Assembly: GCA_944350335.1 (NCBI GenBank)
Contig: CALVOQ010000003.1
Location: 1 to 34,683, forward strand
DNA from: an uncultured Bacilli bacterium
GTDB taxonomy: Bacteria; Bacillota_I; Bacilli_A; RF39; UBA660
Length of the DNA stretch: 34,683 nucleotides
Direction of reading: 5' to 3'
Below, piece after piece: positions 2,297-34,683 of this stretch; position 1 is the stretch's first letter, and each line of letters starts with the position of its first letter. The notes beneath the pieces are model-generated. The model ran no database searches. It had not been told where the DNA came from and worked only from the letters and a program-made list of their open reading frames with translations. The translations under genes and the position numbers were made by a program.

Positions 2297-2857
2297 TTAT
2301 CTTAATCCATTCTTTTTATATTCATCATGTAATTCTTTAAATCTATTAAAATGCACAACTTCCCTTTGTCTTAAAAAACTTAGTGGCGCTAATAAATCAG
2401 TATCATCCGTTAAATCCATAAGATTTTCATAAGTAGCTCTAGCCTTTTCCTCTGCAGCCATATCTTCTTGTAAATCTACTATAGCATCACCAGTAGATTG
2501 AAAATAAGCAGCAGTAAATGGAACACCATTAGCATCTACTGGATAAATACCTTTTTTATGTTGTACAAAGAATGTATCTAACCCAGCATCCTTTAATTCT
2601 TTTAAAGAAGCATCTTTAGTCAATTGATAAATCATAGTTTGTATCATTTCAATATGTCCAAACTCTTCCACAGCTATATCTGTGAGTAATGCTTTACCTT
2701 TTGCATCAGGCATAGTATATCTTTGGCAAAAATACCTTAGCGATGCGCTAAGTTCACTATCCGGTCCACCCAACTGAGCCATAAGTAACTTAGCCATGCG
2801 TAAATCTTTTTTTCTTATATTAATTGGATATTCTAACATTTTTTCATATTTAAACAT
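2297..2857 (-). CDS. cotJC: Spore coat protein CotJC (manganese catalase family)
   Basis: YEK.LEYPINI, QLGGPDSEL, DIAVEEFGHIE, EDMAAEEKAR, FLRQREVVH..RF; directly downstream of the cotJB-like gene. Confidence 0.9.
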   Translation of the reverse strand: MFKYEKMLEYPINIRKKDLRMAKLLMAQLGGPDSELSASLRYFCQRYTMPDAKGKALLTDIAVEEFGHIEMIQTMIYQLTKDASLKELKDAGLDTFFVQHKKGIYPVDANGVPFTAAYFQSTGDAIVDLQEDMAAEEKARATYENLMDLTDDTDLLAPLSFLRQREVVHFNRFKELHDEYKKNGLR

Positions 2858-2858
2858 T

Positions 2859-3386
2859 TTAATTACCCCCTTTATCCCAAGGCCATGGATTCATGTACCA
2901 ATTATATTTATCTCCCATCACAGAAAATGAACATAAAGGTCCATATTTTTTTTCATAAGTTTCTTTAATTGCTTCTAATTCTTTACTATAAGATCTATAC
3001 TTTTCAAACATTTCCATATCAGATGGGTACACATCCAAATACAAATTCAAATCTTTTATTGCAAATGTCAACTCCTGTATTTTAAGAAGCATTTCATCTC
3101 TTTCACCTTTCACAACAACTTTATAAATATGACTTTTATAAGGATCGTATATATTCTTAAACATTCCACCTTTATTCAAACCATCTTTAGGTATACTTAG
3201 TTCATTTGACATATTTTCTCTATAATTATTAATATTTATATTATTTATGTCATATATTTTGTTATTTTTAAAATGATATACTTCATGATTATTGATTTCA
3301 TTATAATCTTTATCTTCAACTTTTAAATAATTATTTGTCTCTTCCCCAACATAATCCAAATTATTATCTCTTTCATCAAAATACAT
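2859..3386 (-). CDS. cotJB: Spore coat protein CotJB with N-terminal CotJA-like segment
   Basis: CotJB motifs DLNLYLDVYP, YEKKYGPL, W...PWPW; upstream GLNKGGMFKNIYDPY resembles CotJA; GGAGG RBS. Confidence 0.8.
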   Translation of the reverse strand: MYFDERDNNLDYVGEETNNYLKVEDKDYNEINNHEVYHFKNNKIYDINNININNYRENMSNELSIPKDGLNKGGMFKNIYDPYKSHIYKVVVKGERDEMLLKIQELTFAIKDLNLYLDVYPSDMEMFEKYRSYSKELEAIKETYEKKYGPLCSFSVMGDKYNWYMNPWPWDKGGN

Positions 3387-10549: not shown

Positions 10550-11438
10550 ATTTATCTAAATATTTAAGTGCTTTAATCGCTGCAATAGTTCCATCGCTCA
10601 CAGCGGTAGTAACTTGTCTTACTTCCTTATCTCTGCAATCACCTGCGACAAAAATTCCTTCAATATTAGTTAATGTTTCGTTACTAAGATAATAATTATT
10701 GTTATTTGTTTCTATATCACATGTTATATTATTTTCTGGAACCATGCCAATAGCCAAAAATATTCCATCAAGCTTTAATAAAGTTTTTTCATTATTAACC
10801 TTTATTACAACACTTTCCAAAGTTTTATTGCCACAATACTCAGTAATAATGCTATTAAAAAGTACTTGGACGTTACTATTCGTCATCACTTTTTCTTTTA
10901 GACTATTTTCACATTTTAACTTGTTTCCACGACATATTAAGTATACTTTCTGGCACAAATTTGAAAGATATATCGCGTTTATCACTGCAGTATTTCCACC
11001 ACCAACGACAGCAACAGTTTTATTTTTATAAAATGAGCCATCACATGTAGTGCAAAAATGTATGCCAAAACCTATTAAATCATTTTCATTTTTTAAACCT
11101 AATAGCCTATGTTTAACACCCGTTGCAATAATTACAGCTTTAGCACTATAGACCGAATTATTAGTCGTTACTTTTTTTATTTTTCCGTTTTCTATAGAAA
11201 TAACTTCATCAATTTCTATATCAACACCTAATTTTTGAACTTGTTCATAAAATAAATCCGATAATTCACTACCACTTATTTGCTCATATCCAGGGTAGTT
11301 TTCTACCAATGGTGATGATGCAATTTGACCGCCTATACCTTCCTTTTCTAAAATTAATGTCTTAGCACCACCACGCGCTAAATAAATGCCAGCGGTTAAT
11401 CCAGCAGGCCCAGCACCGATAACAATTACATCATACAT
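10548..11438 (-). CDS. trxB: Thioredoxin reductase
   Basis: GAGPAG FAD motif, ENYPG, redox CTTCDG, GGGNTA, AGD; start overlaps the nrdD stop. Confidence 0.9.
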   Translation of the reverse strand: MYDVIVIGAGPAGLTAGIYLARGGAKTLILEKEGIGGQIASSPLVENYPGYEQISGSELSDLFYEQVQKLGVDIEIDEVISIENGKIKKVTTNNSVYSAKAVIIATGVKHRLLGLKNENDLIGFGIHFCTTCDGSFYKNKTVAVVGGGNTAVINAIYLSNLCQKVYLICRGNKLKCENSLKEKVMTNSNVQVLFNSIITEYCGNKTLESVVIKVNNEKTLLKLDGIFLAIGMVPENNITCDIETNNNNYYLSNETLTNIEGIFVAGDCRDKEVRQVTTAVSDGTIAAIKALKYLDK

Positions 11439-13773
11439 TACAAACCACTTTTTCGTTAATATACTTTTTGATTTCTGATATATTCTTTATTAATTCAACC
11501 TCTCCATTTTGAGCAATTACTAGACTAGGAGCTTGTTTTATTCCATATCTTTTAGTCAAATCGGCCTCTTTTTCAGCATCAATATACGTATAACTAACTT
11601 TAGCCTCGTCCAAAACTTTTTTTGCCATTTTACAATTAGGACAAGTTTTTGTACCAAACAACATAATTCCGTCTTTAGAATTCCCTACTGAATGCGGTTC
11701 TTTGGAGCAATTTAAATCATAAAGTTTGCGCATCTTGTATTCTTTAGCTTTACCATCATTCCAGTTTTTAACAGGCCTATAATATCCTGTAATTCTACTA
11801 TAAACTTCCGTTTCTTCATCACAAACTGGACACTTAAATATTTCACCTGCAAAATATCCATGTTTTTTACAAACTGAATAAGTTGGACTCAAAGTATAGT
11901 AAGGTAACTTATAATTCTCAGCAATTTTTCTAACTAAATTAGCTGCAGATTTCCAATCAGGAAGTCTTTCGCCCAAAAACGCATGGAAAACTGTACCTGA
12001 AGTATATAATGTTTGTAACTCATCTTGAATATCTAAAGCTTCAAAGATATCGCTTGTAAATCCAACTGGAAGATGTGAACTATTAGTATAATATGGTGTT
12101 TCATCATCCGACGCAGTAATTATATTAGGATATAAAGTCTTATCTTTTTTTGCTAAACGATATGATGTACTTTCAGCAGGAGTTGCCTCCAAATTATACA
12201 AGTCACCATATTCTTCTTGATAATCAGATAATTTTTCTCTCATAAAGTTTAATACATCTTTAGTAAACTTCTGAGCTTTTTCATGTGTCAAATCTTCTTT
12301 TATCCATTTTGCATTTAAACAAGCTTCATTCATTCCAACTAATCCAATAGTAGAGAAATGATTGCTAAATGTACCCAAATATCTTTTTGTATATGGATAT
12401 AATCCTTCTTCTAACAATTTAGAAATTACATTTCTTTTGACTTTCAAACTTCTAGCAGAAATATTCATCATTTTTTCTAATCTATCGTAGAAATCTTTTT
12501 CATCTTTTGCAAGATAAGCAATTCTTGGAATATTGATAGTTACAACACCTATTGATCCAGTTGATTCTCCACTTCCAAAATATCCACCAGATTTTTTACG
12601 CAATTCTCTTAAGTCCAATCTCAACCTACAGCACATACTTCTAACATCACTTGGCTCCATATCGCTGTTGATATAATTTGAAAAATAAGGTGTTCCATAT
12701 TTTGCAGTCATTTCAAATAATAATTTGTTGTTTTCTGTTTCGTTCCAATCAAAATTACTAGTTATAGAATATGTAGGGATAGGATATTGGAAACCTCTAC
12801 CATTCGCATCTCCTTCAATCATTATCTCAATAAATGCCTTGTTAACCATATCCATTTCTTTTTGACAATCTTTATATTTAAAATCAACTTCTTTACCACC
12901 AATTATACAATTTAGTTCTGCTAAATCATTTGGTACTACCCAGTCCAAAGTGATATTTGTAAAAGGTGCTTGAGTCCCCCATCTACTAGGAGTATTAACT
13001 CCATAAACAAATGATTGAATACATTGTTTAACTTCGTTTTGAGTTAAATTATCAATTTTAACAAAAGGCGCTAAATAGGTATCAAAAGAAGAAAATGCTT
13101 GAGCGCCAGCCCATTCGTTCTGCATTATACCTAAAAAGTTTACCATTTGATTACATAAAGTACTCAAATGTTTAGCAGGACTAGATGTGATTTTACCAGA
13201 AACACCACCCAAACCTTCTTGAATTAATTGTTTTAAACTCCACCCCGCACAATAACCTGTTAACATTGATAAATCATGTAAATGTATATCACAATTTCTA
13301 TGTGCATCAGCAACGTCTTTATCATAAACTTCACTTAACCAATAATTAGCTGTAATCGCACCAGAATTACTTAGTATTAATCCACCTACAGAATAAGTAA
13401 CTGTTGAATTCTCTTTAACCCTCCAATCAGTAACATTAAGATAACTATTAACTACATCTTTATAATCGAGAATTGTTGACTGCATTGCGCGCTGTTTCTC
13501 GTGAAGTTTACGATACAAAATATATGCTTTCGCAACATCTGCATATCCAGCTTGTGAAAGAACTCTTTCGGCACTATCTTGTATATCTTCAACATCAATA
13601 ATGTTATCCTTAACTTTACTTTCAAAATCAGCAGTAACTTTCAAAGATAAAAAATCTATAACATTTTCATCATAATTCTTATTCTCAGCTTCAAAAGCTT
13701 TCGTAATAGCATCCCCTATTTTTTTAATATCAAATGATACAATTTTACCATCTCTTTTTCTAACTTTATACAT
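11431..13773 (-). CDS. nrdD: Anaerobic (class III) ribonucleoside-triphosphate reductase with ATP-cone and C-terminal glutaredoxin/NrdH-like domain
   Basis: ATP-cone VRKRDG; finger loop SMCCRL; ATPAES; Zn site CKKHG...CPVC; glycyl radical motif SRITGYY; terminal TCPNC domain. Confidence 0.95.
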   Translation of the reverse strand: MYKVRKRDGKIVSFDIKKIGDAITKAFEAENKNYDENVIDFLSLKVTADFESKVKDNIIDVEDIQDSAERVLSQAGYADVAKAYILYRKLHEKQRAMQSTILDYKDVVNSYLNVTDWRVKENSTVTYSVGGLILSNSGAITANYWLSEVYDKDVADAHRNCDIHLHDLSMLTGYCAGWSLKQLIQEGLGGVSGKITSSPAKHLSTLCNQMVNFLGIMQNEWAGAQAFSSFDTYLAPFVKIDNLTQNEVKQCIQSFVYGVNTPSRWGTQAPFTNITLDWVVPNDLAELNCIIGGKEVDFKYKDCQKEMDMVNKAFIEIMIEGDANGRGFQYPIPTYSITSNFDWNETENNKLLFEMTAKYGTPYFSNYINSDMEPSDVRSMCCRLRLDLRELRKKSGGYFGSGESTGSIGVVTINIPRIAYLAKDEKDFYDRLEKMMNISARSLKVKRNVISKLLEEGLYPYTKRYLGTFSNHFSTIGLVGMNEACLNAKWIKEDLTHEKAQKFTKDVLNFMREKLSDYQEEYGDLYNLEATPAESTSYRLAKKDKTLYPNIITASDDETPYYTNSSHLPVGFTSDIFEALDIQDELQTLYTSGTVFHAFLGERLPDWKSAANLVRKIAENYKLPYYTLSPTYSVCKKHGYFAGEIFKCPVCDEETEVYSRITGYYRPVKNWNDGKAKEYKMRKLYDLNCSKEPHSVGNSKDGIMLFGTKTCPNCKMAKKVLDEAKVSYTYIDAEKEADLTKRYGIKQAPSLVIAQNGEVELIKNISEIKKYINEKVVCNV

Positions 13774-13800
13774 TTATATTTCCTCCCATTCGTATAAAAT

Positions 13801-14484
13801 CTATATTCCTCTAACGATAACATTAGGAAATTTTTTATTTAATTTATTTACTAACTCAATAAGTTCAGATTTATCAAAACCATTTAACTTTTGATTCAAA
13901 ACATTAGAACTATTTTCAAAGTTCTGTATATAATATTTTGCATTTTTACCTAAATACTCACAAATGTTATTCAAAATCTTATAATTATGATATTCTTTAA
14001 CTATTGTTGTTCTAAACTCATAATCAATTCCAGATTTTTTTATATAGTCCACGCTTTCAATTATCTTATTATAATCGATATCAATTCCACTGACTAAGGA
14101 AAAATTTACCTTATCAGCTTTTATATCCATAGCAATATAATCAATCAATTTTTCATCAATAAGTTTTTTAAGAACATTTGGATTGTAACCATTCGTATCC
14201 AATTTAACCTTTAAGCCTAAGTCTTTTATACTTTTTATAAAAAACATTATATCTTTTTGCATCGTAGGCTCTCCACCAGTAATTACAACACCATCTAACA
14301 TTGACTTTCTCTTTTTCAAATAATCCATAACATCAGTTTGAGATATGTTTCCTTTTCCAAAAGTGATTAAATCACTATTATGACAAAATGGACATTTAAA
14401 ATTACAACCTTTAGTAAACACAATACATGCAATATGACCAGGATAATCAGTTAAAGTCAATTTTTCAAAACCACTAATTTCCAT
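13801..14484 (-). CDS. nrdG: Anaerobic RNR activating enzyme (radical SAM)
   Basis: CNFKCPFCHN, ITGGEPT, KLDTNG, EFRTT; adjacent to nrdD; ATG overlaps the upstream stop (TGATG). Confidence 0.93.
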   Translation of the reverse strand: MEISGFEKLTLTDYPGHIACIVFTKGCNFKCPFCHNSDLITFGKGNISQTDVMDYLKKRKSMLDGVVITGGEPTMQKDIMFFIKSIKDLGLKVKLDTNGYNPNVLKKLIDEKLIDYIAMDIKADKVNFSLVSGIDIDYNKIIESVDYIKKSGIDYEFRTTIVKEYHNYKILNNICEYLGKNAKYYIQNFENSSNVLNQKLNGFDKSELIELVNKLNKKFPNVIVRGI

Positions 14485-16436
14485 CACGTCACATCCTTAG
14501 TAATAAACTTTAAAAAACCTACATCACTATCAAATATATTAAAAATAAGTTCTTCTAATTTATTAACTGTCATATTTTTATTTACTTTTATTTCTAAAAT
14601 ACTACCACCACTTACTAATTTTTGAATTTCACCAATTAAACTATAATTGTTTTTAATTTCTGGCAAGTTACTGATTAAATCGTACATACATTTATTTTTA
14701 AGTTCTTTTCTATTTCCATAAATTGACTTATCCAAAGCAATTAATTCTTTAGAAGCCGCACTTTTATAAGGTTCATATAAATAAAAGTTTAATTTAGTTT
14801 CTTCTCTAAAGATCATACATTTTTTATTTAAAAACTTAAGTATACCTTTTAATAATTCATATTGCTTAGTAGAGTCTTTTTCTAATAACTGAACACACTC
14901 ATTTAAGCCAATCAGTCCTATTAATAAATTACCATTTTTAATTATCTTTCTTATTTTTTGTCCTCTTTCTAATCTATCATCACTCATAATATTGTTATTA
15001 AAAACAAATTCATAATTGTCTTTATTCTTATTTCCTATTGTTTCAAAACTTAATAGCAACTCACTTTTAACAATTTCAACAATAAAATCTAATTTATTAT
15101 AAAAATTTTTAATATTATCATTTTCAAACTCTAAACCAAGTCTGGCAAAATTAATATTTGTTAAAGCAACAACCATTCTACCTTCAGAACTACTAACATC
15201 TTCATTATTATTTTCGTAAATACGTACTCCATCTGAGAAATATTCAACCTCATTATTTCCTTTATTATATGAAGTTTTATTATTAGATACCATAACATTT
15301 TTATTATTAATAATTAACGAACATATTTCGCTCATATAACTCGCATTATCTTCATTTAGTTTAAAAATAACTATAACATTATTTAATCTACCTAACTCAT
15401 TTAATACTTCTAGCAATGTCTTATTAATACAATTTCCAATAGAACTATCATTTGTACCAAAACTAAACGAATAAGACTTATTAAACATTGAAAGATCTTC
15501 AAACATTTTCTTTAAATTATAATATAAGTCAGATTTACATTTTTCATAGGCATCTTTATAGGCACTATCAAAAATATTTTCAACTTGTTCAGACAACATA
15601 TAAATTGAATAATTTGACATATCAAACGTTATATCCTTTTCTTTGTTAATTAATTCAATAATTTTCTTCAAATTAATATATTTATCAAAACCTGAGACTT
15701 TTAAATAATTAGATAAATATTCAATATATAACAATTTAAACTTTTTAATAGAATAATTTTCTAATAATTTATCTAACGACGGAACATTGATTTCCCCACT
15801 TATTTCAGTAGATAAATCCTCTAACTTATAAACAACGTTTTCAAAACTATTATTCTCTAAAAAATTATTTAAATTTATATGAGTATTTGATAACCTACCT
15901 AAAGAAAAATCACACATATCGTTAATATAAATATTACCTTCGTCATGCTCCCTTAAAAACTTATTATCTATTATATATGACTTTGTAATTTCATTGACTA
16001 CCATCAAGCCATAATTCTTAACGATATCCTTAATTTTACATGAATTATCATTAAGCAAAATATTATCATCATTTATTTTTTCTATGGCCTTTAAGAACTT
16101 ATGTTGTTGTTTCTGAGTAAAAATTTTTCTACTAGCAGCTCTCTTTTTTCTATATTCACTAAATGCATTGTACACTTCTTTAAAGTTACTTTCTTCCAAT
16201 TTTGATTCAATTATATCCTGTATGTCTTCAACATTTATTGTTTTTCTGTTAGCATAATTTATTTCAATATACTTTAGTACGTTTTCATATATTTTATTAA
16301 TCTTTGTTTCTTCACTATTATCATAAACACTATCAAAGGCATTCTTAATTGCAACAGCAATCTTATAACTATTAAAGTTTACTCTTTGACCACTTCTTTT
16401 TACAACAACAAGTTCATCAAAAACATCTTTTTGCAA
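14484..16436 (-). CDS. ATP-cone-containing degenerate NrdD paralogue (predicted catalytically inactive)
   Basis: Intact ATP-cone VVKRSG...VEDIQD; barrel motifs NINFARLG and IGLIGLNEC; no finger-loop Cys, no Zn site, no glycyl-radical motif; TTG start behind GGAGGTG. Confidence 0.8.
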   Translation of the reverse strand: MQKDVFDELVVVKRSGQRVNFNSYKIAVAIKNAFDSVYDNSEETKINKIYENVLKYIEINYANRKTINVEDIQDIIESKLEESNFKEVYNAFSEYRKKRAASRKIFTQKQQHKFLKAIEKINDDNILLNDNSCKIKDIVKNYGLMVVNEITKSYIIDNKFLREHDEGNIYINDMCDFSLGRLSNTHINLNNFLENNSFENVVYKLEDLSTEISGEINVPSLDKLLENYSIKKFKLLYIEYLSNYLKVSGFDKYINLKKIIELINKEKDITFDMSNYSIYMLSEQVENIFDSAYKDAYEKCKSDLYYNLKKMFEDLSMFNKSYSFSFGTNDSSIGNCINKTLLEVLNELGRLNNVIVIFKLNEDNASYMSEICSLIINNKNVMVSNNKTSYNKGNNEVEYFSDGVRIYENNNEDVSSSEGRMVVALTNINFARLGLEFENDNIKNFYNKLDFIVEIVKSELLLSFETIGNKNKDNYEFVFNNNIMSDDRLERGQKIRKIIKNGNLLIGLIGLNECVQLLEKDSTKQYELLKGILKFLNKKCMIFREETKLNFYLYEPYKSAASKELIALDKSIYGNRKELKNKCMYDLISNLPEIKNNYSLIGEIQKLVSGGSILEIKVNKNMTVNKLEELIFNIFDSDVGFLKFITKDVT

Positions 16437-26553: not shown

Positions 26554-27825
26554 TTACCACTCTTTTTTAACATTTAGCAATTCTTTTATGTATCCCACTA
26601 GACAACTAGGAGCTAAGATAAAAGCATAAAATAAAGCATAAAATATAAAAGCAAGAAAACTTCTTCTTTTCAATTTACAATTAACTTCCTTAAATACATT
26701 TCTTCTTTTTATTTCTATTACAAAGCATAAAATTAGACCAAGTAATATTACTATTAAAGTAAGAATTCCCATGAATAAGTGATTATTAAATAGTAAAAAA
26801 ATTATTCCCAAAGGTACAAATATTAAAAGTGCTAAATCTATAAATGGAAATAGCGTATTCATACACATCAAAAATTTAGATTTTTTACTTAATTTTTTAG
26901 AAGTTATAATACGTACTTTTTTAAATGCTTCAATCATTCCTCTGGCCCATCGTTTTCTTTGCTTAAACAAACAATTAAATGATTCTGGAACTTCAGTAAA
27001 GGCAATCGCATTTTTAGCAAAGTTAATTTTATATCCTTTAGATAACAATTCCCATGTTAAAACAATATCTTCACCAATACAATTTTGCCAACCACAGTTA
27101 GCCTTTATAATATTTGTTTTATAAGCACTAAAAGCGCCTTGTGCTACTAAAGTAGAATCATAACTTCCTTGATATAGTTTTACTCCAAAAATTCCTAATG
27201 TATAATCCCATTGTTGCAATTTTGTTACAAAATTCTTTTTATCATTTTGAACAATTATAGTTCCAGCAGTTGCAGCAACATCTTTTTTTGAGTTTTCCAA
27301 TTTGTCTATAATATTTTGAACTGCTAACGGATGCATAATTGTATCACTATCAAGAGTTATAAAATACTTTGTTTTGACATATGTTAAACCAACATTTAAA
27401 GCATAAGATTTACCACTATGCTTTATTTTTAATATTGTAATATCAAAACAACAATTCATTTTCTTTAATAATTCTAAGGAATTGTCAGTTGATCCATCAT
27501 CAATTACTATAATATGGATTTGACCACAATATTTTTGCTTAATTATTGATTTTATTGTTCTTTCTATACAATGTGAAGCATTATACATTGGTATTAATAT
27601 TGTTACATCACAATTGCTTTTATTACATACTTTTCTTTCTTTTTTAGTAAATAATATACTCATTAAAGTAAACATATAAATAAAACTTGGTATAAGAGCT
27701 ACAAAAACTACAATATATATTGCTAAAGGATAATTGAAATAAGCTGCTATTTCATGAATCCAATTAATGTTAATAAAAGTTGCAAATATAAGATAAATAA
27801 GTGAAATAATAAATACTACAAACAT
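26554..27825 (-). CDS. Processive GT2 glycosyltransferase, IcaA/PgaC-like
   Basis: DDGSTD, GKS.ALN, DSD, GED, QRKRW motifs with N- and C-terminal TM helices. Confidence 0.88.
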   Translation of the reverse strand: MFVVFIISLIYLIFATFININWIHEIAAYFNYPLAIYIVVFVALIPSFIYMFTLMSILFTKKERKVCNKSNCDVTILIPMYNASHCIERTIKSIIKQKYCGQIHIIVIDDGSTDNSLELLKKMNCCFDITILKIKHSGKSYALNVGLTYVKTKYFITLDSDTIMHPLAVQNIIDKLENSKKDVAATAGTIIVQNDKKNFVTKLQQWDYTLGIFGVKLYQGSYDSTLVAQGAFSAYKTNIIKANCGWQNCIGEDIVLTWELLSKGYKINFAKNAIAFTEVPESFNCLFKQRKRWARGMIEAFKKVRIITSKKLSKKSKFLMCMNTLFPFIDLALLIFVPLGIIFLLFNNHLFMGILTLIVILLGLILCFVIEIKRRNVFKEVNCKLKRRSFLAFIFYALFYAFILAPSCLVGYIKELLNVKKEW

Positions 27826-29012: not shown

Positions 29013-29435
29013 ATGTTAATAAATTATACTGAAAAAGAACTAGATTTATGTGCTAGATTAATGCGCTCAGAAGCACTCAGCGAAGGAGATCTAGGCATGC
29101 TAATGGTAGGAAATGTAATAGTTAATCGGGTTTTAGCAGACTGTATGACATTTTCAAACTTAAGAACTATAACAGATGTAATATATCAAAAAAACCAATT
29201 TAGCGGAATAAACAGTTCGCTATTTTATAGTTCATCTACAACAAAAGAAAAATCTTTGGCAAAAAGAGTCTTAAAAGGAGAATACTATCATCCTGCTACA
29301 AATTCATTATGGTTTTATGCTCCAGGAAATAATACTGCTTGCAAAAGTACTTGGTATGATCAAAACTTCTCGGGTCGATACAAAAGTCATTGCTTTTATG
29401 AACCTGATCCCGGAATTTGTAAAGATTTACACTAA
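29013..29435 (+). CDS. cwlJ: Spore cortex-lytic enzyme CwlJ (Hydrolase_2)
   Basis: ARLMRSEA..EG..GML.VGNV..NR...C..F..LRTI...IYQ and SLWF...C...WY.Q....R.KSHCFY.P match the CwlJ pattern; no signal peptide. Confidence 0.88.
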   Translation: MLINYTEKELDLCARLMRSEALSEGDLGMLMVGNVIVNRVLADCMTFSNLRTITDVIYQKNQFSGINSSLFYSSSTTKEKSLAKRVLKGEYYHPATNSLWFYAPGNNTACKSTWYDQNFSGRYKSHCFYEPDPGICKDLH

Positions 29436-29460
29436 AAAATGTGAAATATATTCACATTTT
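29436..29460. terminator. Bidirectional terminator cwlJ/fic
   Basis: AAAATGTGAA-ATATA-TTCACATTTT perfect 10-bp stem at convergent gene ends. Confidence 0.65.
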
Positions 29461-30099
29461 AATTTTATTTACATCATCCGGACTAACTAATGCTTTCTCA
29501 AATTCCATATCTATCGCACTTCTAAACGCAATCGCAAATTGAATATTATTTAAAACTGTATCCCCATTAAATCTAGACCAATCTAACTCTAAAGGTCCAA
29601 AAGGCAAATCCTTAGTTTTTTCTACAACAAACTCTCGTAAAAACTCCCTCGCACTTCTTCCATTTCCTTCTCTAAAAGGATGTATTGCCATTAGTTGCAC
29701 ATAATAAGTAGACAAAAACATTGCTAAAGCAGATCTATTACTTACGTTTAAAAATTCGCCATGCATTAATTCTAATTCTCCATTCAAATATTTTTCAATA
29801 TTTCTATAATCAGTAAAGCCTGTTTGTTTTTGCATATTAACTGTTCTGTATTCACCTGCCCAGTCATATAAATCTCCAAACAAATATTTATGTATATTTC
29901 TTAAATGCAAACTATCAAAATTACCCACGATTGGATTTTCATATAATTCCACTAACTTCTCAAAGGTAATTTCTGATTCTTTCACTTGTAATTCATCATA
30001 ATCAGTTATATTTAATTTATTTTTTAACGTATTAGTATTGGGATAAAAATAAGCTTTCCATCTTTCGTCTTCCAAGCGTTTTTCATCTGACATTTCCAT
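29452..30099 (-). CDS. Fic-domain protein (FicT-like AMP transferase)
   Basis: Canonical HPFREGNGRSAR; YP.T.TLKNKL.I, IH..LF.D.YDWAG..R; ATG 30099 behind GGTGA. Confidence 0.92.
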   Translation of the reverse strand: MEMSDEKRLEDERWKAYFYPNTNTLKNKLNITDYDELQVKESEITFEKLVELYENPIVGNFDSLHLRNIHKYLFGDLYDWAGEYRTVNMQKQTGFTDYRNIEKYLNGELELMHGEFLNVSNRSALAMFLSTYYVQLMAIHPFREGNGRSAREFLREFVVEKTKDLPFGPLELDWSRFNGDTVLNNIQFAIAFRSAIDMEFEKALVSPDDVNKIKM

Positions 30100-30265
30100 T
30101 TTTATCACCACTCTTCAATACTAATCTAGGAGTTTCACATAATTCTTCAATAACTTTTTTCTTATATGAATCAAGAAAATTCTGAGTTAGATAAATCCCA
30201 TCAATTTTTAAAGTTGCTAAGGCTTGAATAATTGCTTTTCGTTTTTTATCAATTTTTACTTCCAT
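30083..30265 (-). CDS. Putative FicA/VbhA-like antitoxin
   Basis: 60 aa, overlaps the fic start, TLKIDG resembles inhibitory (S/T)xxxE(G/N); GAGG RBS. Confidence 0.65.
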   Translation of the reverse strand: MEVKIDKKRKAIIQALATLKIDGIYLTQNFLDSYKKKVIEELCETPRLVLKSGDKNGNVR

Positions 30266-30314: not shown

Positions 30315-31466
30315 TTATTTTGTAGGAATTATCAATTCTTGACCAATAGATAAATTAGTACTATTTAAGTTATTAGCTTTCATTAAATCATTAACTGTAA
30401 TTCCATATTTATTAGAAATATTCCATAAAGTATCCCCTTTTTGAACAGTATAATTAGCATAATCTTTAGTTCCTGGTATTACTAATATCTGGCCAATATT
30501 TAACAAATTAGAAGTTAAATTATTAGCGCTTTTAATTTCATCCACTGTAACATTATATTTATTAGCAATACTATATAGATTATCTCCTTTAACCACTACA
30601 TATTTTATTTCCCCCGTGTCTTCATCTTCTTCTGGCTCGACAGTAACATTTTTTGCCGGTATAATTAACTCCTGATTTATTGATAATGCGTTAGAAGTTA
30701 AATTATTAGCCTTTTTTATCTCGTCTACAGTAACACCATAACTATTTGCGATTTTCCATAAAGTATCTCCACTTTTTACTATATAAGTGATTTGCTCACT
30801 TTCGCCCACATCAATATCCAAATCTTCTTCCTTAGGTATTAATAATTGTTGATTAATTTGTAACGTAGAACCACTTAGATTATTTAGTTTTTTTAGCGTC
30901 TCTACAGTAGTTTTATACTTATTAGCAATACTCCATAAACTATCTCCTGCTTGAACCGTATAAACTAGATAATCACTTGGAACAATCTCTTCACTTTTTT
31001 GAACTTTTAATGTTTGACCTACCTTTAAAATATTAGAACTAAGATTATTTAATTCTTTCAAATCATCCACTGTAATACCAAACTTGTTAGCGATACTCCA
31101 CAAGCTGTCTCCTTTTTGGACAGTATAATAACCACTATCAGCAGGCGCTACGTAATTTAAACCTTTGTATTCCATAACTGCTCTTACAACCGCTTCTGCG
31201 TAATCTTCATAATTGTTTTTCAATTGATTTATGTCATCTTTAGGACTATCCAAAAAACCATATTCAATAATTATTGCCTCTGTATTAGGAGTATCTCTGT
31301 GTATAAAATAATAATCTTTTGAAGGATTGCTAGGTAATCTCTGTTGATAATATTTTCTTATGTTTTGACCTTCCTTCTCTATTTCATTTAATATTTTAGA
31401 TGATAGCTTACTATCATTACGTAGCGCATAAATTACTTCCGCACCGTCGCCACCTACCGTGTTCAT
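30315..31466 (-). CDS. 3' portion of an N-acetylmuramoyl-L-alanine amidase (Amidase_3) with five LysM repeats, N-terminally interrupted
   Basis: Begins at GGDGAEVIY (normally right after SxHxN); has IIIEYGFLD; five YTV..GD.LW.IA-type repeats; lacks the GHGG/E/H zinc ligands; no clear RBS. Confidence 0.85.
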   Translation of the reverse strand: MNTVGGDGAEVIYALRNDSKLSSKILNEIEKEGQNIRKYYQQRLPSNPSKDYYFIHRDTPNTEAIIIEYGFLDSPKDDINQLKNNYEDYAEAVVRAVMEYKGLNYVAPADSGYYTVQKGDSLWSIANKFGITVDDLKELNNLSSNILKVGQTLKVQKSEEIVPSDYLVYTVQAGDSLWSIANKYKTTVETLKKLNNLSGSTLQINQQLLIPKEEDLDIDVGESEQITYIVKSGDTLWKIANSYGVTVDEIKKANNLTSNALSINQELIIPAKNVTVEPEEDEDTGEIKYVVVKGDNLYSIANKYNVTVDEIKSANNLTSNLLNIGQILVIPGTKDYANYTVQKGDTLWNISNKYGITVNDLMKANNLNSTNLSIGQELIIPTK

Positions 31467-31479
31467 TTACCATTAGTAA

Positions 31480-32013
31480 TTATTTTATATCTATTATATT
31501 ATTTTCTTTTAAATATTGATAAACAGTATTTGCTGATTCCTCAATGTTTTGATTTGCAATACTTATTTTAGGAATATCCTTAAATTCTTGATAACTTGCT
31601 ACCTGATCCCTCTTTATTTCTCTCATATAATAATCCTTATGCCTTTCTTTGTATTCTAAAGCATCCTCCCCTTCAAGAATTAATCTATCATAAATTGCTT
31701 CTGGTGTATCTATAATTTCTATTGATTTAGTGTTAGTCATTAATAATTCTTCTACTATATTTTTTGAAAATATAGGTGAAACTGCCATTATAAAACTTTT
31801 TTCACCATTTTCTATTATATTAAGCATTATTAGTTCTTTAATATCGAATCTATTATAATCATTAGGAAATTCTTCTTGAAATAAATCTATACTACCATAT
31901 ATTTTAATAATTTCATCATCTATATCATAAAATTTACAATTAATTTTTTTTGCTAATTCTTTTCCTATTGTTGTTTTTCCAACATTAGATATTCCCCATA
32001 TTAATAATCTCAT
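31480..32013 (-). CDS. P-loop kinase (shikimate kinase/AAA-like)
   Basis: GISNVGKTTIGKELA......FYDID. Confidence 0.8.
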   Translation of the reverse strand: MRLLIWGISNVGKTTIGKELAKKINCKFYDIDDEIIKIYGSIDLFQEEFPNDYNRFDIKELIMLNIIENGEKSFIMAVSPIFSKNIVEELLMTNTKSIEIIDTPEAIYDRLILEGEDALEYKERHKDYYMREIKRDQVASYQEFKDIPKISIANQNIEESANTVYQYLKENNIIDIK

Positions 32014-32015
32014 AT

Positions 32016-32615
32016 CTATTCACCATATTCATATCCATATTTAATTTTATAAAAATATCTTCGTACACGTAGATTATTCTTACTTAAATCAAAGTTTCTG
32101 TAATCATATATTTTACTATGCCTTCCATCCATTTCTAATGCATAGTAGTCTGATTTACCCGTTTTATCAATATTATCAACAACCTTTTTTAATTCATCAC
32201 TAGTAATATCATCAATCATACCAGAACCTTTTCCATCTATAATATATGGATAATGCATTCCATTTCCTTTTTCGAATTCACTAGAGCCTAAATATGTAAT
32301 TTTAAATGTAGTAGTTGAACCTGTATCATATTCCATTATCATAGTATCATTTTCTTTTAAACCAATACTACTTAATTTAGTCACAACAGCATTTATAGGT
32401 GGAATTTCACTATGATCATCTTCTATACAAACCCAACAGTCATATACTTTATTCTTATAATTAATTGAATACAAATGATAAGCTAACGATTCAAATGATG
32501 CAAGTATACTATATGCCAAGTCAGCAATAGTCCTTTTATCTGTTATTTCAATTTTTCTCCAAATTTTAGTTTCTAAACCATCAATTTCAACTTTAAAAGT
32601 TAATACTTTTGTCAT
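32016..32615 (-). CDS. Plasmid pRiA4b ORF-3 / IS1096 passenger TnpR-like protein
   Basis: KIWRKIEI, HLY, YD.G..T.F.I, YP.IIDG.G....DD pattern. Confidence 0.7.
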   Translation of the reverse strand: MTKVLTFKVEIDGLETKIWRKIEITDKRTIADLAYSILASFESLAYHLYSINYKNKVYDCWVCIEDDHSEIPPINAVVTKLSSIGLKENDTMIMEYDTGSTTTFKITYLGSSEFEKGNGMHYPYIIDGKGSGMIDDITSDELKKVVDNIDKTGKSDYYALEMDGRHSKIYDYRNFDLSKNNLRVRRYFYKIKYGYEYGE

Positions 32616-32638
32616 ACCAGCACCTCACTTGAAGAATA

Positions 32639-34300
32639 TTATACATTATTTTTACCTTTTCTGCCATATGGATTCCTTGCTAAATTCCTATTTTCATATT
32701 TAAAATTTATTTCTGGCACAACATCATATTTATATTTAATAGTAATGTTTCTGTTTTTATCAATTACTATTCTGTCTATCAAAGTATCAATTAATTCTTT
32801 TTTAGGTTTATTTAAATCCAATAGTTTTTTAATTTTTTTTGTATATTCTGGTAAAACACTACTTTTATTTTTTATTTTATATTTTTTTACTTGTTCATTT
32901 TCAATACTTTCATTTATCTGTTTTAATTTGTTTTCCGATTCACTAGCTAATACCTTATAAGTATCTACAGAAATTGCACCATCACACCTATCATTATATA
33001 GAGTTGTTAATCTATTAGTTATTTTATCTTTTTCAATTTGTAAGTCCTTGATAACTTTATCTATATCAGTTGTTTCTTTATGAATATTTTTAACAACTTC
33101 ATTATTTAATTTATTTACATCAAGTTCTTTAATTAATTTAGATACTGATCTATTAATTTGTTCTAGTATTTGTTCTTCTAAATAATTATATGGATAAAAA
33201 TGTGAATAGCATCTTCCTCTTACTGGATCTCTAGAATATCTATTACAATTAACTGACCAGTAATCTAATTTTTTTCTATAAAGAACTGTTAGTCTATTTT
33301 GACATTCTTTACAGAATAGTTTTCCTTCTAACAATCTTTTTTCTCTGTTTGTCTTAACTTCATAATTTCTAGTATTTCTTCTTCTTAAAGTATTAACATA
33401 ATTAAAAGTATCTTTATCTACTAGTGCTTCATGTGTATTTTCAACTATTATCCACAACTTTTCATCTAAAGTTATTTTCTTTTTTGATTTATAATTAACT
33501 TTTGTTTGAGTATGTTGTACTAAATCTCCTGTATAAATTCTATTAGATAGAATCTTTTTTACTGTGGAGATATTCCAATTATCTCTATCAATTAATCTTG
33601 ATGAATAATTAGTCTTTTTATAGCCACTTGGTGTTGAAACTTTTTCTTTATTAAGTCTATTTGCTATTTCTGTAGGTCCAATTCCGTCTGCTCTCCATTT
33701 GAATATTTTTTTTACAATAGGTGCAGTTTCTGGGTTAGGTATTAAGTGTCCTTTATCTTCTGGATCTCTCATATAGCCAAAACATGGCAAACTTCCAACA
33801 AATTTTCCATTTTTTCTTTTTTCATTTAATACATTTCTAATCTTAACAGAGTTTTGCTTACTATAATAATCGTTACAAGCAATTATAAATGTAGATGAAT
33901 CATTACTAGCTTGATTTTTGAAACTATCATAAGATTCTAATATAGACATAAATCTTATATGATTCTCTGGAAAAAATGTTTCAATATAATATCCAGTCAT
34001 TACATGATCTCTACCTAATCTAGATAAATCTTTAACTATGACACAGTTAATCTTTTTATTATTTATATCTTCTAACATTTTTTGAAATCCTGGTCTTTCA
34101 AAATCAGTTCCAGAATATCCATCATCAACATATTCTTTAACTAAATTAAAACTATTATTTTTAACAAAACTCTTTAATAATTCTCTTTGATTTATTACAC
34201 TTTCACTATCAGATTCATATTTTTTATCTTTATCTTCTTGAGATAATCTTATGTAGATTCCAACATTGAAATCTACTCCAGTTAAGTAAGTATTATACAT
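32639..34300 (-). CDS. Large serine recombinase (resolvase + recombinase + Zn-ribbon + coiled-coil)
   Basis: YIRLSQED catalytic Ser, DDGYSG..F.RP, KDLSRLGR, IL.NRIYTG, THEALVD, C.EC...C...C. Confidence 0.95.
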   Translation of the reverse strand: MYNTYLTGVDFNVGIYIRLSQEDKDKKYESDSESVINQRELLKSFVKNNSFNLVKEYVDDGYSGTDFERPGFQKMLEDINNKKINCVIVKDLSRLGRDHVMTGYYIETFFPENHIRFMSILESYDSFKNQASNDSSTFIIACNDYYSKQNSVKIRNVLNEKRKNGKFVGSLPCFGYMRDPEDKGHLIPNPETAPIVKKIFKWRADGIGPTEIANRLNKEKVSTPSGYKKTNYSSRLIDRDNWNISTVKKILSNRIYTGDLVQHTQTKVNYKSKKKITLDEKLWIIVENTHEALVDKDTFNYVNTLRRRNTRNYEVKTNREKRLLEGKLFCKECQNRLTVLYRKKLDYWSVNCNRYSRDPVRGRCYSHFYPYNYLEEQILEQINRSVSKLIKELDVNKLNNEVVKNIHKETTDIDKVIKDLQIEKDKITNRLTTLYNDRCDGAISVDTYKVLASESENKLKQINESIENEQVKKYKIKNKSSVLPEYTKKIKKLLDLNKPKKELIDTLIDRIVIDKNRNITIKYKYDVVPEINFKYENRNLARNPYGRKGKNNV

Positions 34301-34345
34301 TTATCCTCCTTTTCTTCTTACTTAATTGGGTATTAAGACTCATCC

Positions 34346-34374
34346 ATGATAGCATCATCTTATTAGATTTGCAA
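34346..34374 (-). promoter_or_regulatory. sigma-A-type promoter of the recombinase
   Basis: TTGCAA-17 nt-TATCAT with TG extended -10. Confidence 0.55.
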
Positions 34375-34378
34375 ATCA

Positions 34379-34480
34379 TTAATTAGATGAATCTCCTTTT
34401 TCTTCTTTTATTATCTCTTCAATTAGATATTTTAAAATAAGATCCTTAAATGTAGTGTTAGTCAAATAGGTATCCTCCAT
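34379..34480 (-). CDS. 33-aa micro-ORF upstream of the recombinase (TnpW-like?)
   Basis: AGGTGG RBS + MEDTYLTNTTFKDLILKYLIEEIIKEEKGDSSN; not in the ORF track. Confidence 0.45.
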   Translation of the reverse strand: MEDTYLTNTTFKDLILKYLIEEIIKEEKGDSSN

Positions 34481-34683
34481 TATTAAACCACCTATTTAAA
34501 TTTATGTTTAAATTATTTATTATTGATATTTTTATTTGCATTTATCAAACTCCCTTCTAGTTATTAACTAGTTATATATTTAAACTAGTTAATTTATAAT
34601 ATTAATTTTTTTATATTCTATTTATTATATTATTATGGATATAAAGATCCATTGAATGTAAAATATACATCCAATTAATTAGA

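Follow-up and report, generated by a model that had tools for sequence, protein, structure and literature searches.

The window analysed here, a contig of 34,683 nucleotides (nt) from an uncultured Bacilli bacterium, carries the 3' part of a cell wall amidase gene whose 5' half lies on another contig of the same genome, and between the two halves sits an integrative element that encodes a large serine recombinase (LSR). We lean toward reading this split gene as a switch of the skin, SPbeta, and gin kind, in which timed excision in the mother cell would rebuild the amidase; the reading draws on sequence comparisons and on analogy with those systems. An initial annotation, made from the window by itself, had already proposed that a serine-recombinase element splits the amidase gene, and the recovery of the missing half bears this out.

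A split amidase gene and its predicted in-frame rejoining

The open reading frame (ORF) in question (30315-31466, minus strand) encodes 383 amino acids (aa) with the N terminus MNTVGGDGAEVIY. Pfam places it at positions 85 to 172 only of the 174-position Amidase_3 profile (PF01520), followed by five LysM repeats, and taken alone it lacks a full catalytic domain, the N-terminal part with the zinc ligands being missing, just as the initial annotation had said. The genome to which the window belongs (G000) comprises 66 contigs and 818 kb and is rated 92% complete, the window being the whole of contig C3. A search of its contigs with the Amidase_3 profile gave exactly two places, the window and the end of contig C14, where profile positions 1 to 78 are covered, and no other copy. 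The C14 part scores 63.4 bits and the window part 28.5 bits, and a full catalytic domain is reached only when both halves are combined. The annotation had predicted a 5' half that ends at the zinc-ligand motif with a GG-containing core in common, and this is what the end of C14 holds (S-N-H-I-N-A-G-G).

At the DNA level, C14 runs MALTGIVIDAGHGG...DVIVISNHINAG and then ends in the two bases GG. Its last 77 nt are identical to the first 77 nt of contig C37, which runs ...AATGCGGGAGG and then into element sequence, placing attL within one contig; C37 leaves the amidase frame as ...NAGG AEFTYHYII and a stop codon, after which foreign genes follow. At the opposite junction, attR, the window reads ...TAATGGTAAATGAACACGGTAGG and then TGGCGACGGTGCGGAA. 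The two junctions have the core AGG in common, which agrees with the annotated junction at about 31454 and with the claim that the first four codons of the ORF derive from the element. The interruption falls between the codons of ...SNHINAG-G and G-DGAEV.... When C14 (GGA GG) is joined in silico to the window (T GGC GAC), the product reads NAG-G-G-D-G-A-E-V in frame, and an exact attL x attR exchange at the shared AGG is thereby predicted to restore the reading frame. The rejoined layout is identical to that of the uninterrupted 467-aa gene of a relative, G021 (...SNHINAG GGDGAEVIY...), with which the window part is collinear from ...NAG/GGDGAEVIY on; the annotation's expectations of an in-frame excision product and of collinearity with empty-site relatives were both borne out. 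The whole gene, of about 466 aa, would consist of Amidase_3 and five LysM repeats without a signal peptide, for which there is no room because the catalytic domain begins at residue 6.

The start codon of the 383-aa ORF (31466-31464) follows the stop codon of a kinase-like gene of the element (31480-31482) with 13 nt between them and arises from element arm sequence, ...AAATGAAC...; judged from that sequence, it is a by-product of the attP arm. An in-frame ATG was present at attR in 1 of 16 diverse junctions and in 17 of the 66 junctions of close LSR relatives, and inspection of the window sequence revealed no ribosome-binding site before it. The suggestion in the annotation that a catalytically dead LysM binder might be made in the integrated state is weak on both counts.

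Many independent assemblies have the junction within a single contig, and we therefore regard it as extremely unlikely that the gene is really intact and that assembly or binning has produced chimeric joins of separate element and host contigs. The fragmentation of the assembly, the end of C14 at the junction, and the end of the window inside the element would each suit such an artefact. Against it, attL lies within C37, attR lies within single contigs both in the window and in six other genomes that have both halves 8.2 to 12.8 kb apart, and both 66 independent public assemblies and the Logan contigs of four runs show the attR junction once more.

Contig ends at the site carry some information of their own. 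C14 stops at the last base common to attL and the rejoined attB, and its 77-nt overlap break, in an assembly with k = 77, marks a branch at that base. Among the Logan contigs, run X1 has a host-side contig that stops at 31455 and an element-side contig that begins at 31447, and one contig of run X5 begins at 31450; the four runs were compared as contigs only, per-contig depth being unusable. These breaks fit an empty or differently occupied site within the sample.

The island, its recombinase, and a candidate directionality factor

The element measures at least 8,304 + 3,229 = 11,533 bp. From C37 to the window end the sequence is unbridged, no contig of the genome overlapping the right end of the window; in run X7 an 8498-nt contig extends beyond 34683. 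The left arm on C37 and the reverse complement of the right arm in the window are identical at 24 of 45 positions at shift 0, with a match at 14 of 15 positions in an inner block (counted by eye on the printed strings), and such inverted arms are as would be expected of the two half-sites of a serine-integrase attP.

The kinase-like, PRiA4_ORF3-like, and LSR genes that the annotation had placed beside the amidase ORF are recovered there by Pfam, on the same strand. For the kinase-like P-loop protein all shikimate-kinase models fell below cut-off and PADLOC gave no match; the PRiA4_ORF3-like protein had no NCBIfam or PADLOC match above cut-off. C37 adds a helicase-like protein of 907 aa with a full-length match to the PADLOC candidate PDC-S53 (1094 bits), a Phd-like ORF of 82 aa, an Eco57I-type N6 methylase, a C5 methylase, and a 470-aa HNH_2 protein. 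In the six relatives with both amidase halves on one contig, the inserts carry type II and type III restriction-modification, a Pycsar cyclase with PycTM, AbiE, an OLD-like ATPase, nSTAND3-Mrr, RloB with an AAA_21 ATPase, Schlafen-type helicases, HEPN, and Fic. Genes for phage structure or conjugation were not found in the inserts with Pfam. The element is a non-phage integrative element with an LSR and restriction-modification and defence cargo, and the LSR, with a small upstream region, is the only part that all elements share.

Of 76 element ORFs, 67 run in the direction of the amidase gene. Transcription that continues from the amidase promoter into the element was considered as a trigger and dropped, because the first gene after attL is mostly variable cargo, with one class excepted, and because co-orientation is expected from replication bias. 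The excepted class (L029/L030, in G035 and G015) begins with a TnpV-family gene (PF14198, up to 2.7e-36), after which comes a conserved ORF of 99 to 116 aa; this start recalls Tn4451, a clostridial family that also uses a large serine recombinase. Independently of cargo, a block like GGGTATTAAGACGGCTATATTTAAAC lies about 35 to 60 nt inside the left end of elements (about 110 to 135 in C37, L003) and is also found at the left ends in G007, G013, G003, G019, G227, G093, and G069. It is common to two junction classes and lies beyond the expected attP half-site, since the first 25 to 30 nt differ between the classes that have it.

The LSR gene lies 1.2 kb from attR. Its product carries Resolvase, Recombinase, and Zn_ribbon_recom domains, all above the Pfam cut-offs, and R18 and S20, the latter of which we take to be the nucleophile, are invariant in 34 sequences. 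The structure model has a coiled-coil hairpin of helices 395-439 and 445-482, with a mean predicted local distance difference test score (pLDDT) of 67 that is higher in the hairpin region. The domain order and coiled coil, together with inverted att arms around a small core, are those of a large serine recombinase. A housekeeping-type promoter-like site precedes the gene, between it and the micro-ORF described below, and G003 has the same hexamers (TTGCAA/TATCAT). Two further observations concern this region. G000 has a second LSR (C20:8054-9649), 39% identical to that of the window, and the DNA at C20:8043-8396 is 66% identical to window 33952-34311. In addition, a tiny conserved ORF of 26 to 28 aa (window 34301-34390, minus strand; in the same place in G001, G003, G004, and G031) overlaps the promoter region and start codon of the LSR gene (gap -8 to +5 nt) and may be spurious or a leader peptide.

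LSRs are described as requiring a partner protein for attL x attR recombination (PMC12286644). A candidate for this partner is encoded by a micro-ORF immediately upstream of the LSR gene (coding 34480-34382 in the window: MEDTYLTNTTFKDLILKYLIEEIIKEEKGDSSN). Micro-ORFs of 27 to 41 aa were found 2 to 87 nt upstream of the LSR in 9/9 elements, and 39 distinct variants adjoin close LSRs; an alignment of 25 sequences has ten invariant positions, including F11, K12, L14-L16, L19, I20, I23, and K25. Models of the LSR in complex with the micro-protein, each entered as an alignment, scored 0.66, 0.67, and 0.66, against 0.00 for the best control, with at least 87% of contacts agreeing between runs and a partner pLDDT of at least 64. 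Scores at that mark were reached by 58 of 80 solved complexes and by 2 of 110 mismatched pairs, counts that apply only roughly here because the input was our own alignments. The modelled contacts fall at LSR residues 389-406, 486-507, and 524-528, which would seat the micro-protein at the two ends of the coiled coil proximal to DNA-binding domain 2 (DBD2) and not at its tip. Verified directionality factors are described as binding at the DBD2-proximal coiled-coil ends (PMC12286644, a virtual-pulldown study).

The micro-ORF is also preceded by a CATA box, recognised by aligning the upstream regions of micro-ORFs, and the layout from box to ribosome-binding site is that of the amidase gene and of spore genes of G000. 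The box stands at -18 to -30 in 38/38 close loci. In the nine elements it is at -22 to -26 in six, or in eight if G015 and G035 are counted from their second ATG, which is our own reading. Box-bearing elements include classes with LSRs merely 49 to 57% identical to that of the window, and conservation of the block AACATAAnTTTAAATAGGTG persists between unrelated flanks and in places where no upstream ORF could account for it. A strict sigK pattern gave just 4 scattered matches inside elements, in the 12 element pieces searched. Upstream of the micro-ORF, in the stretch that runs to the window end, there is also a palindrome, TTAACTAGTT...AACTAGTTAA.

Sporulation context, prevalence, and selection

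Genes for sporulation are present in the host. Spo0A_C, SpoIVA, and a sigK-like gene were found in G000 and in 4/4 relatives tested (the sigK-like gene of G000 scores 296 bits, just under the 298.65 cut-off), and the window itself has cotJB/cotJC-type and cwlJ-like genes, in line with the cotJ and cwlJ of the initial annotation. A published analysis predicts sporulation for RF39 (PMC10868615). The genomes are small, about 0.82 Mb for G000 and 0.8 to 1.3 Mb for relatives, and would be among the smallest of any spore former if these organisms sporulate.

The mother-cell -10 consensus of Bacillus subtilis is CATAcanT for sigE and CATAnnnTA for sigK. Of 22 amidase orthologues, whether split or intact, 20 have a box that resembles these, CATAnnnT(A/T), 23 to 29 nt ahead of the ATG, and the strict pattern AC-N16/17-CATAnnnTA precedes 14 of the 22 genes as compared with 6 of 596 upstream regions of long G000 ORFs. 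The layout of CATAnnnT(A/T), 1 to 12 nt, ribosome site, and start codon occurs before 31 of 655 ORFs of G000. Twenty of these 31 were scanned, and four match the sporulation-named families YlbD_coat, SpoVS, YabP, and Spore_GerQ; others scanned are a D-Ala-D-Ala carboxypeptidase, a collagen-repeat protein, two LysM proteins, and an M23 peptidase, and the list also includes the cotJB and cwlJ-like gene of the window. In this lineage the layout may be the mark of a mother-cell regulon whose transcripts start at the ribosome site. By analogy with B. subtilis, the box would be read by a mother-cell sigma factor, and we infer from the sequence context that the amidase is a mother-cell sporulation gene. 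Its neighbours are a histidine kinase gene upstream of the 5' half on C14 and, downstream of the 3' half, a Fic/Doc pair and the cwlJ-like gene.

In its layout the amidase resembles CwlC, the mother-cell lysis amidase of B. subtilis, which has an N-terminal Amidase_3 domain, no signal peptide, a C-terminal peptidoglycan-binding module, and a late-sporulation type of promoter. The binding module of CwlC is SPOR, whereas Pfam found no SPOR domain in the C-terminal part here, where five LysM repeats stand instead; the likeness is one of layout, and the amidase may work like CwlC without being classed as CwlC. It is improbable, in our judgement, that the gene is instead a vegetative autolysin or a remnant phage endolysin, with the CATA box being something else and the split unrelated to development. 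Amidase_3 and the lack of a signal peptide are a typical combination in phage endolysins too, the best NCBIfam amidase model for the intact G021 orthologue, CwlD (TIGR02883), gives 81.6 bits, far below its cut-off of 221.55, and a -35 element was not found. On the other hand, phage genes flank neither half, the box keeps its distance in nearly all orthologues and recurs in the same layout before cotJB, gerQ, yabP, spoVS, ylbD, and the cwlJ-like gene, and the presence of the gene in 140 of 201 genera suggests vertical inheritance.

If the split gene is a switch, it might work as follows. The LSR would be made from its housekeeping-type promoter and would be unable to excise the island alone, so that the island would stay integrated in growing cells and in the forespore. 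The micro-protein of about 30 aa encoded upstream would be the directionality factor of the LSR, and the mother-cell sigma factor that activates the amidase promoter would activate the micro-protein as well. Together, LSR and micro-protein would excise the island only in the terminal mother cell, where the rebuilt signal-less amidase would act on the mother-cell wall for lysis, as CwlC does, and the spore chromosome would keep the island.

The prevalence of the interruption was gauged in 201 genomes of the same family, one per genus, with 5' halves accepted at E<=1e-22. Among the 140 genera in which a 5' half was found, its open frame ends within 150 aa in 64 (46%) and is long in 76. Of the first 22 5' ends read, 14 were interrupted and 8 intact, and a further 20 with short frames were read afterwards; of the resulting 34 interrupted ends, 33 pass into element sequence after NAG-G, and the remaining one stops at the end of a contig. 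Because the element sides at the junction fall into at least four classes, several element lineages must use the same site. As a separate observation, some genomes (G221, G120, G116, and G148) have two paralogous amidase genes, one intact and one interrupted, and in G221 these stand in tandem (G221:C34:6164-7643).

A scan for the LSR across the genomes of 185,579 species gave 80 loci with LSRs 69 to 96% identical. At 66 of them an amidase 3' half lies less than 3 kb downstream on the same strand and is matched from query residue 1; of the 14 without an adjoining half, 8 have less than 1.5 kb of flank. Among 61 relatives, the 12 genomes with an LSR at least 49% identical all have a split-type amidase, and none of the 13 genomes with an intact gene has such an LSR. 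The hosts of the 80 loci are uncultured Bacilli or Tenericutes from the guts of mouse, rabbit, human, goat, and others, including 'Mycoplasma sp. CAG:877', presumably members of the order RF39. At 12 loci the LSR is at least 92% identical to that of the window and the amidase halves are merely 51 to 73% identical, and over the 66 loci LSR identity and amidase identity correlate at r = -0.42. These elements move horizontally, since hosts whose amidases differ widely carry near-identical LSRs. In runs X7 and X9, which come from different studies, one contig matches the element from 31455 to about 33840, with at least 30 of the listed differences within the 100 nt on the amidase side (31341-31440) and no alignment beyond 31309; since this contig matches the element and not the amidase side, the same element end sits in the amidase gene of another host. 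The element is a member of a large, horizontally mobile guild of LSR islands hosted by a family of small-genome, spore-gene-bearing gut Bacilli, and this codon stretch is their attB.

In four species of the genus to which the window belongs, all with split genes and with elements of different classes, the ratio of nonsynonymous to synonymous substitution rates (dN/dS) over 188 codons of the catalytic domain is 0.022 to 0.057 in all six pairs (dS 0.16 to 1.5), and of 16 genomes with split genes, 15 have an open 3' half (265 to 391 aa). We take this strong purifying selection as indirect support for regular reconstitution, since a gene that is dead while occupied would not be kept in this state unless occupation were always brief, and such brevity is hard to square with a site that is filled in every sampled congener and in 46% of genera.

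There is a considerable, if lesser, chance that these are instead ordinary mobile elements tolerated in a dispensable or redundant amidase gene, that they excise sporadically and for transfer only, and that occupied hosts simply lack the enzyme. The near-identical LSRs in distant hosts and the identical element end in another amidase background are what such elements would leave, as is a cargo of variable defence genes (restriction-modification, Pycsar, AbiE, OLD-like, nSTAND3-Mrr, RloB, PDC-S53). Paralogous Amidase_3 genes are present in many genomes, and excision was not seen in the Logan contigs, which could not display the rejoined form. This explanation fits poorly with the low dN/dS in a genus where every sampled species has the gene split and with 3' halves that nearly all remain open. 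It also leaves unaccounted for a promoter-like box common to the target amidase and spore genes and repeated before the micro-ORF at every close locus, across classes with divergent LSRs.

Several observations weigh against the developmental switch that we favour, and some of them speak for mere tolerance as well. The gene is uninterrupted in 76 of 140 genera, and no host therefore needs a switch; loss of cwlC alone reportedly has a mild effect in B. subtilis, so that a plain knock-out could be tolerated. The congener G005 (66% complete), the exception among the 16 genomes, has a decayed, fragmented 3' half with a TAA (G005:C12:4644-4900), and the LSR of G015 has an internal TAA (G015:C6:96285-97823); both stops are signs that some copies are decaying or immobilised. 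The elements have been recently mobile, and some insertions may be young, which would weaken the argument from selection. The contig breaks are explicable by co-resident strains with an empty or differently occupied site, and among 24 of the 148 loose contig ends none falls at 31453-31456, although contigs compared with separate attL and attR references cannot show the joint. The contact of micro-protein and LSR is that of a modelled complex and not of measured binding. As for the box, its assignment to a mother-cell sigma factor leans on the B. subtilis consensus, no clear -35 element was found in addition to the -10-like nonamer that makes up this 'promoter', and the box is so near the ribosome-binding site that transcripts would start there. 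The strict pattern (AC, 16 to 17 nt, CATAnnnTA) was found at 0/65 loci upstream of the LSR or of the longest ORF preceding it.

A broader version of the developmental switch can be put forward only tentatively. It holds that islands occupy the zinc-site codons of a mother-cell amidase in about half the genera of a family of uncultured spore-forming Bacilli with genomes of less than 1.3 Mb, that a factor of about 30 aa in each island is wired to the mother-cell sigma factor, that the island departs only from the doomed mother cell and so rebuilds the enzyme by which this cell is opened, and that the excised circle is released with the spore, which retains a copy of its own. If this were true, a single switch would couple spore release, germ-line retention, and the horizontal spread of defence genes.

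Table 1. Features of the split amidase gene, the element, and the sporulation context (window coordinates unless a contig is named)
Feature	Position	Strand	Remarks
Amidase 3' part: C-terminal half of Amidase_3 and five LysM	30315..31454	-	Stop codon 30315-30317
attR core AGG	31453..31455	.	Common to 5' junction (C14 ends ...GGGAGG); crossover dinucleotide inside core
Element-derived codons ATG AAC ACG GTA	31455..31466	-	Supply the fortuitous in-frame start of the ORF
Right arm of element, putative attP-derived half-site	31455..31499	-	Imperfect inverted repeat of C37 left arm
P-loop kinase-like cargo, 177 aa	31480..32013	-	SKI 2e-10, AAA_18
PRiA4_ORF3-like cargo, 199 aa	32016..32615	-	PF07929, 6.7e-20
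LSR, 553 aa	32639..34300	-	Resolvase 15-166, Recombinase 190-309, Zn_ribbon_recom 323-383
Housekeeping-type promoter-like site TTGCAA, 17 nt, TATCAT	34346..34374	-	Precedes LSR gene; putative function
Micro-ORF, 33 aa, MEDTYLTNTTFKDLILKYLIEEI..., and stop codon	34379..34480	-	Candidate recombination directionality factor
CATAAATTT box, then AGGTGG	34498..34506	-	26 nt before micro-ORF start
Rest of element to contig end	34481..34683	-	Element continues off window
Amidase 5' half	C14:18007-18267		At contig end; Amidase_3 profile 1-78; ends ...VISNHINAG + GG
cotJB and Mn-catalase/CotJC-type gene	2300-3386		In window
CwlJ/SleB-type Hydrolase_2 gene	29013-29435		In window
Box-layout examples in window	2862-3386, 29013-29432, 26557-27825	-, +, -	
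Spo0A, SpoIVA, sigK-like genes of G000	C13:16447-16758, C41:4683-5393, C29:7374-8042		

Relation to known interrupted genes and neighbouring observations

A kind of mobile element that sits in mother-cell sporulation genes and is cut out by a serine recombinase is already known; the interrupted targets described are sigK, spsM, spoVFB, spoVR, gerE, and yabG (PMC4191935, PMC10747680, PMC5595907). Full-text literature searches, which leave supplements aside, gave no paper on an interrupted amidase of the present kind among the titles listed, and the word 'amidase' is absent from PMC4191935 and PMC10747680. The novelty here lies in the target and host group, in the scale, in a defence-island cargo, and in how small the candidate directionality factor is.

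Nearest in concept is gin, in the gerE gene of B. cereus ATCC 10987 (Abe et al. 2017, PMC5595907). As described there, gin is, like the present element, a non-phage island that carries restriction-modification and interrupts a late mother-cell gene within a small stretch; a serine recombinase and its partner protein (GirC/GirX) excise it, where the partner proposed here is a candidate, and identical copies in different strains imply recent transfer by an unknown route (PMC5595907). Excision of gin during sporulation has been shown (PMC5595907), whereas the present island is known from its sequence. The target of gin is a regulator, and it has three LSRs and 31 genes; here the target is a wall amidase, and the islands have one LSR and span 8 to 13 kb. 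The present site differs further in its hosts, uncultured small-genome gut Bacilli, and in being occupied by at least four junction classes in 64 of 140 genera.

SPbeta, by contrast, is a 134-kb active phage, and the timing of its excision is set by the expression of its directionality factor and not of its integrase, a model that we propose for the micro-ORF as well. In SPbeta/spsM (SprA/SprB), too, an LSR-bearing element occupies a mother-cell gene, and excision requires a small directionality factor (PMC4191935, PMC5499854). The present islands differ in having no phage structural genes (Pfam) and a candidate factor of just about 30 aa. In skin/sigK (SpoIVCA, or CD1231 with the recombination directionality factor CD1234 in Clostridioides difficile), an LSR-bearing element likewise splits a late mother-cell gene and is excised in the mother cell and retained in the spore (PMC5025042, PMC10747680). 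The skin element is a degenerate prophage, largely vertical in its inheritance, and its target is a sigma factor, whereas the present elements are diverse, cross genera, and interrupt the gene of an effector enzyme that stands last in the pathway.

The yin element of Clostridium botulinum interrupts yabG, a gene of the sigK regulon, and structure modelling has given it a putative small directionality factor with a putative SigK promoter; its integrated and excised forms coexist in culture (PMC10747680). It is described as a prophage from a single strain (PMC10747680), in contrast to the family-wide occupation of the present site. A more distant parallel is XisF, the fdxN-element recombinase of Anabaena heterocysts, an LSR that also excises an element from a gene in a terminally differentiated cell, in another phylum and another developmental programme. 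Against the XisF model (NF041201), the window LSR scores 83 bits (1.7e-23), far below the cut-off of 375, and is not an equivalog.

Should the switch prove real, the few sporulation genes known to be rebuilt when an element leaves would be joined by a new target, a wall amidase acting in the final sporulation step, in a new group of uncultured hosts. With dozens of genera and at least four junction classes, the site offers matching sets of LSR, attB, attP, and micro-protein as a natural series, in which site choice and direction in serine integrases can be studied and from which new integrase tools may be drawn. It also illustrates, in a concrete case, how defence islands find a safe harbour in very small genomes, and the CATA-box layout provides a handle on the mother-cell regulon of organisms that are as yet uncultivable.

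Outside the island, a Fic/Doc-family gene lies directly downstream of the amidase (window 29452-30265, minus strand; PADLOC candidate PDC-S04, 5e-50), and a 60-aa ORF overlaps its start, possibly forming with it a toxin-antitoxin or defence pair. Farther away, at window 11434-16436 (minus strand), two NrdD-type anaerobic ribonucleotide reductase genes stand on either side of an activase gene, the second copy matching the profile far more weakly than the first (6e-29 versus 2e-192).

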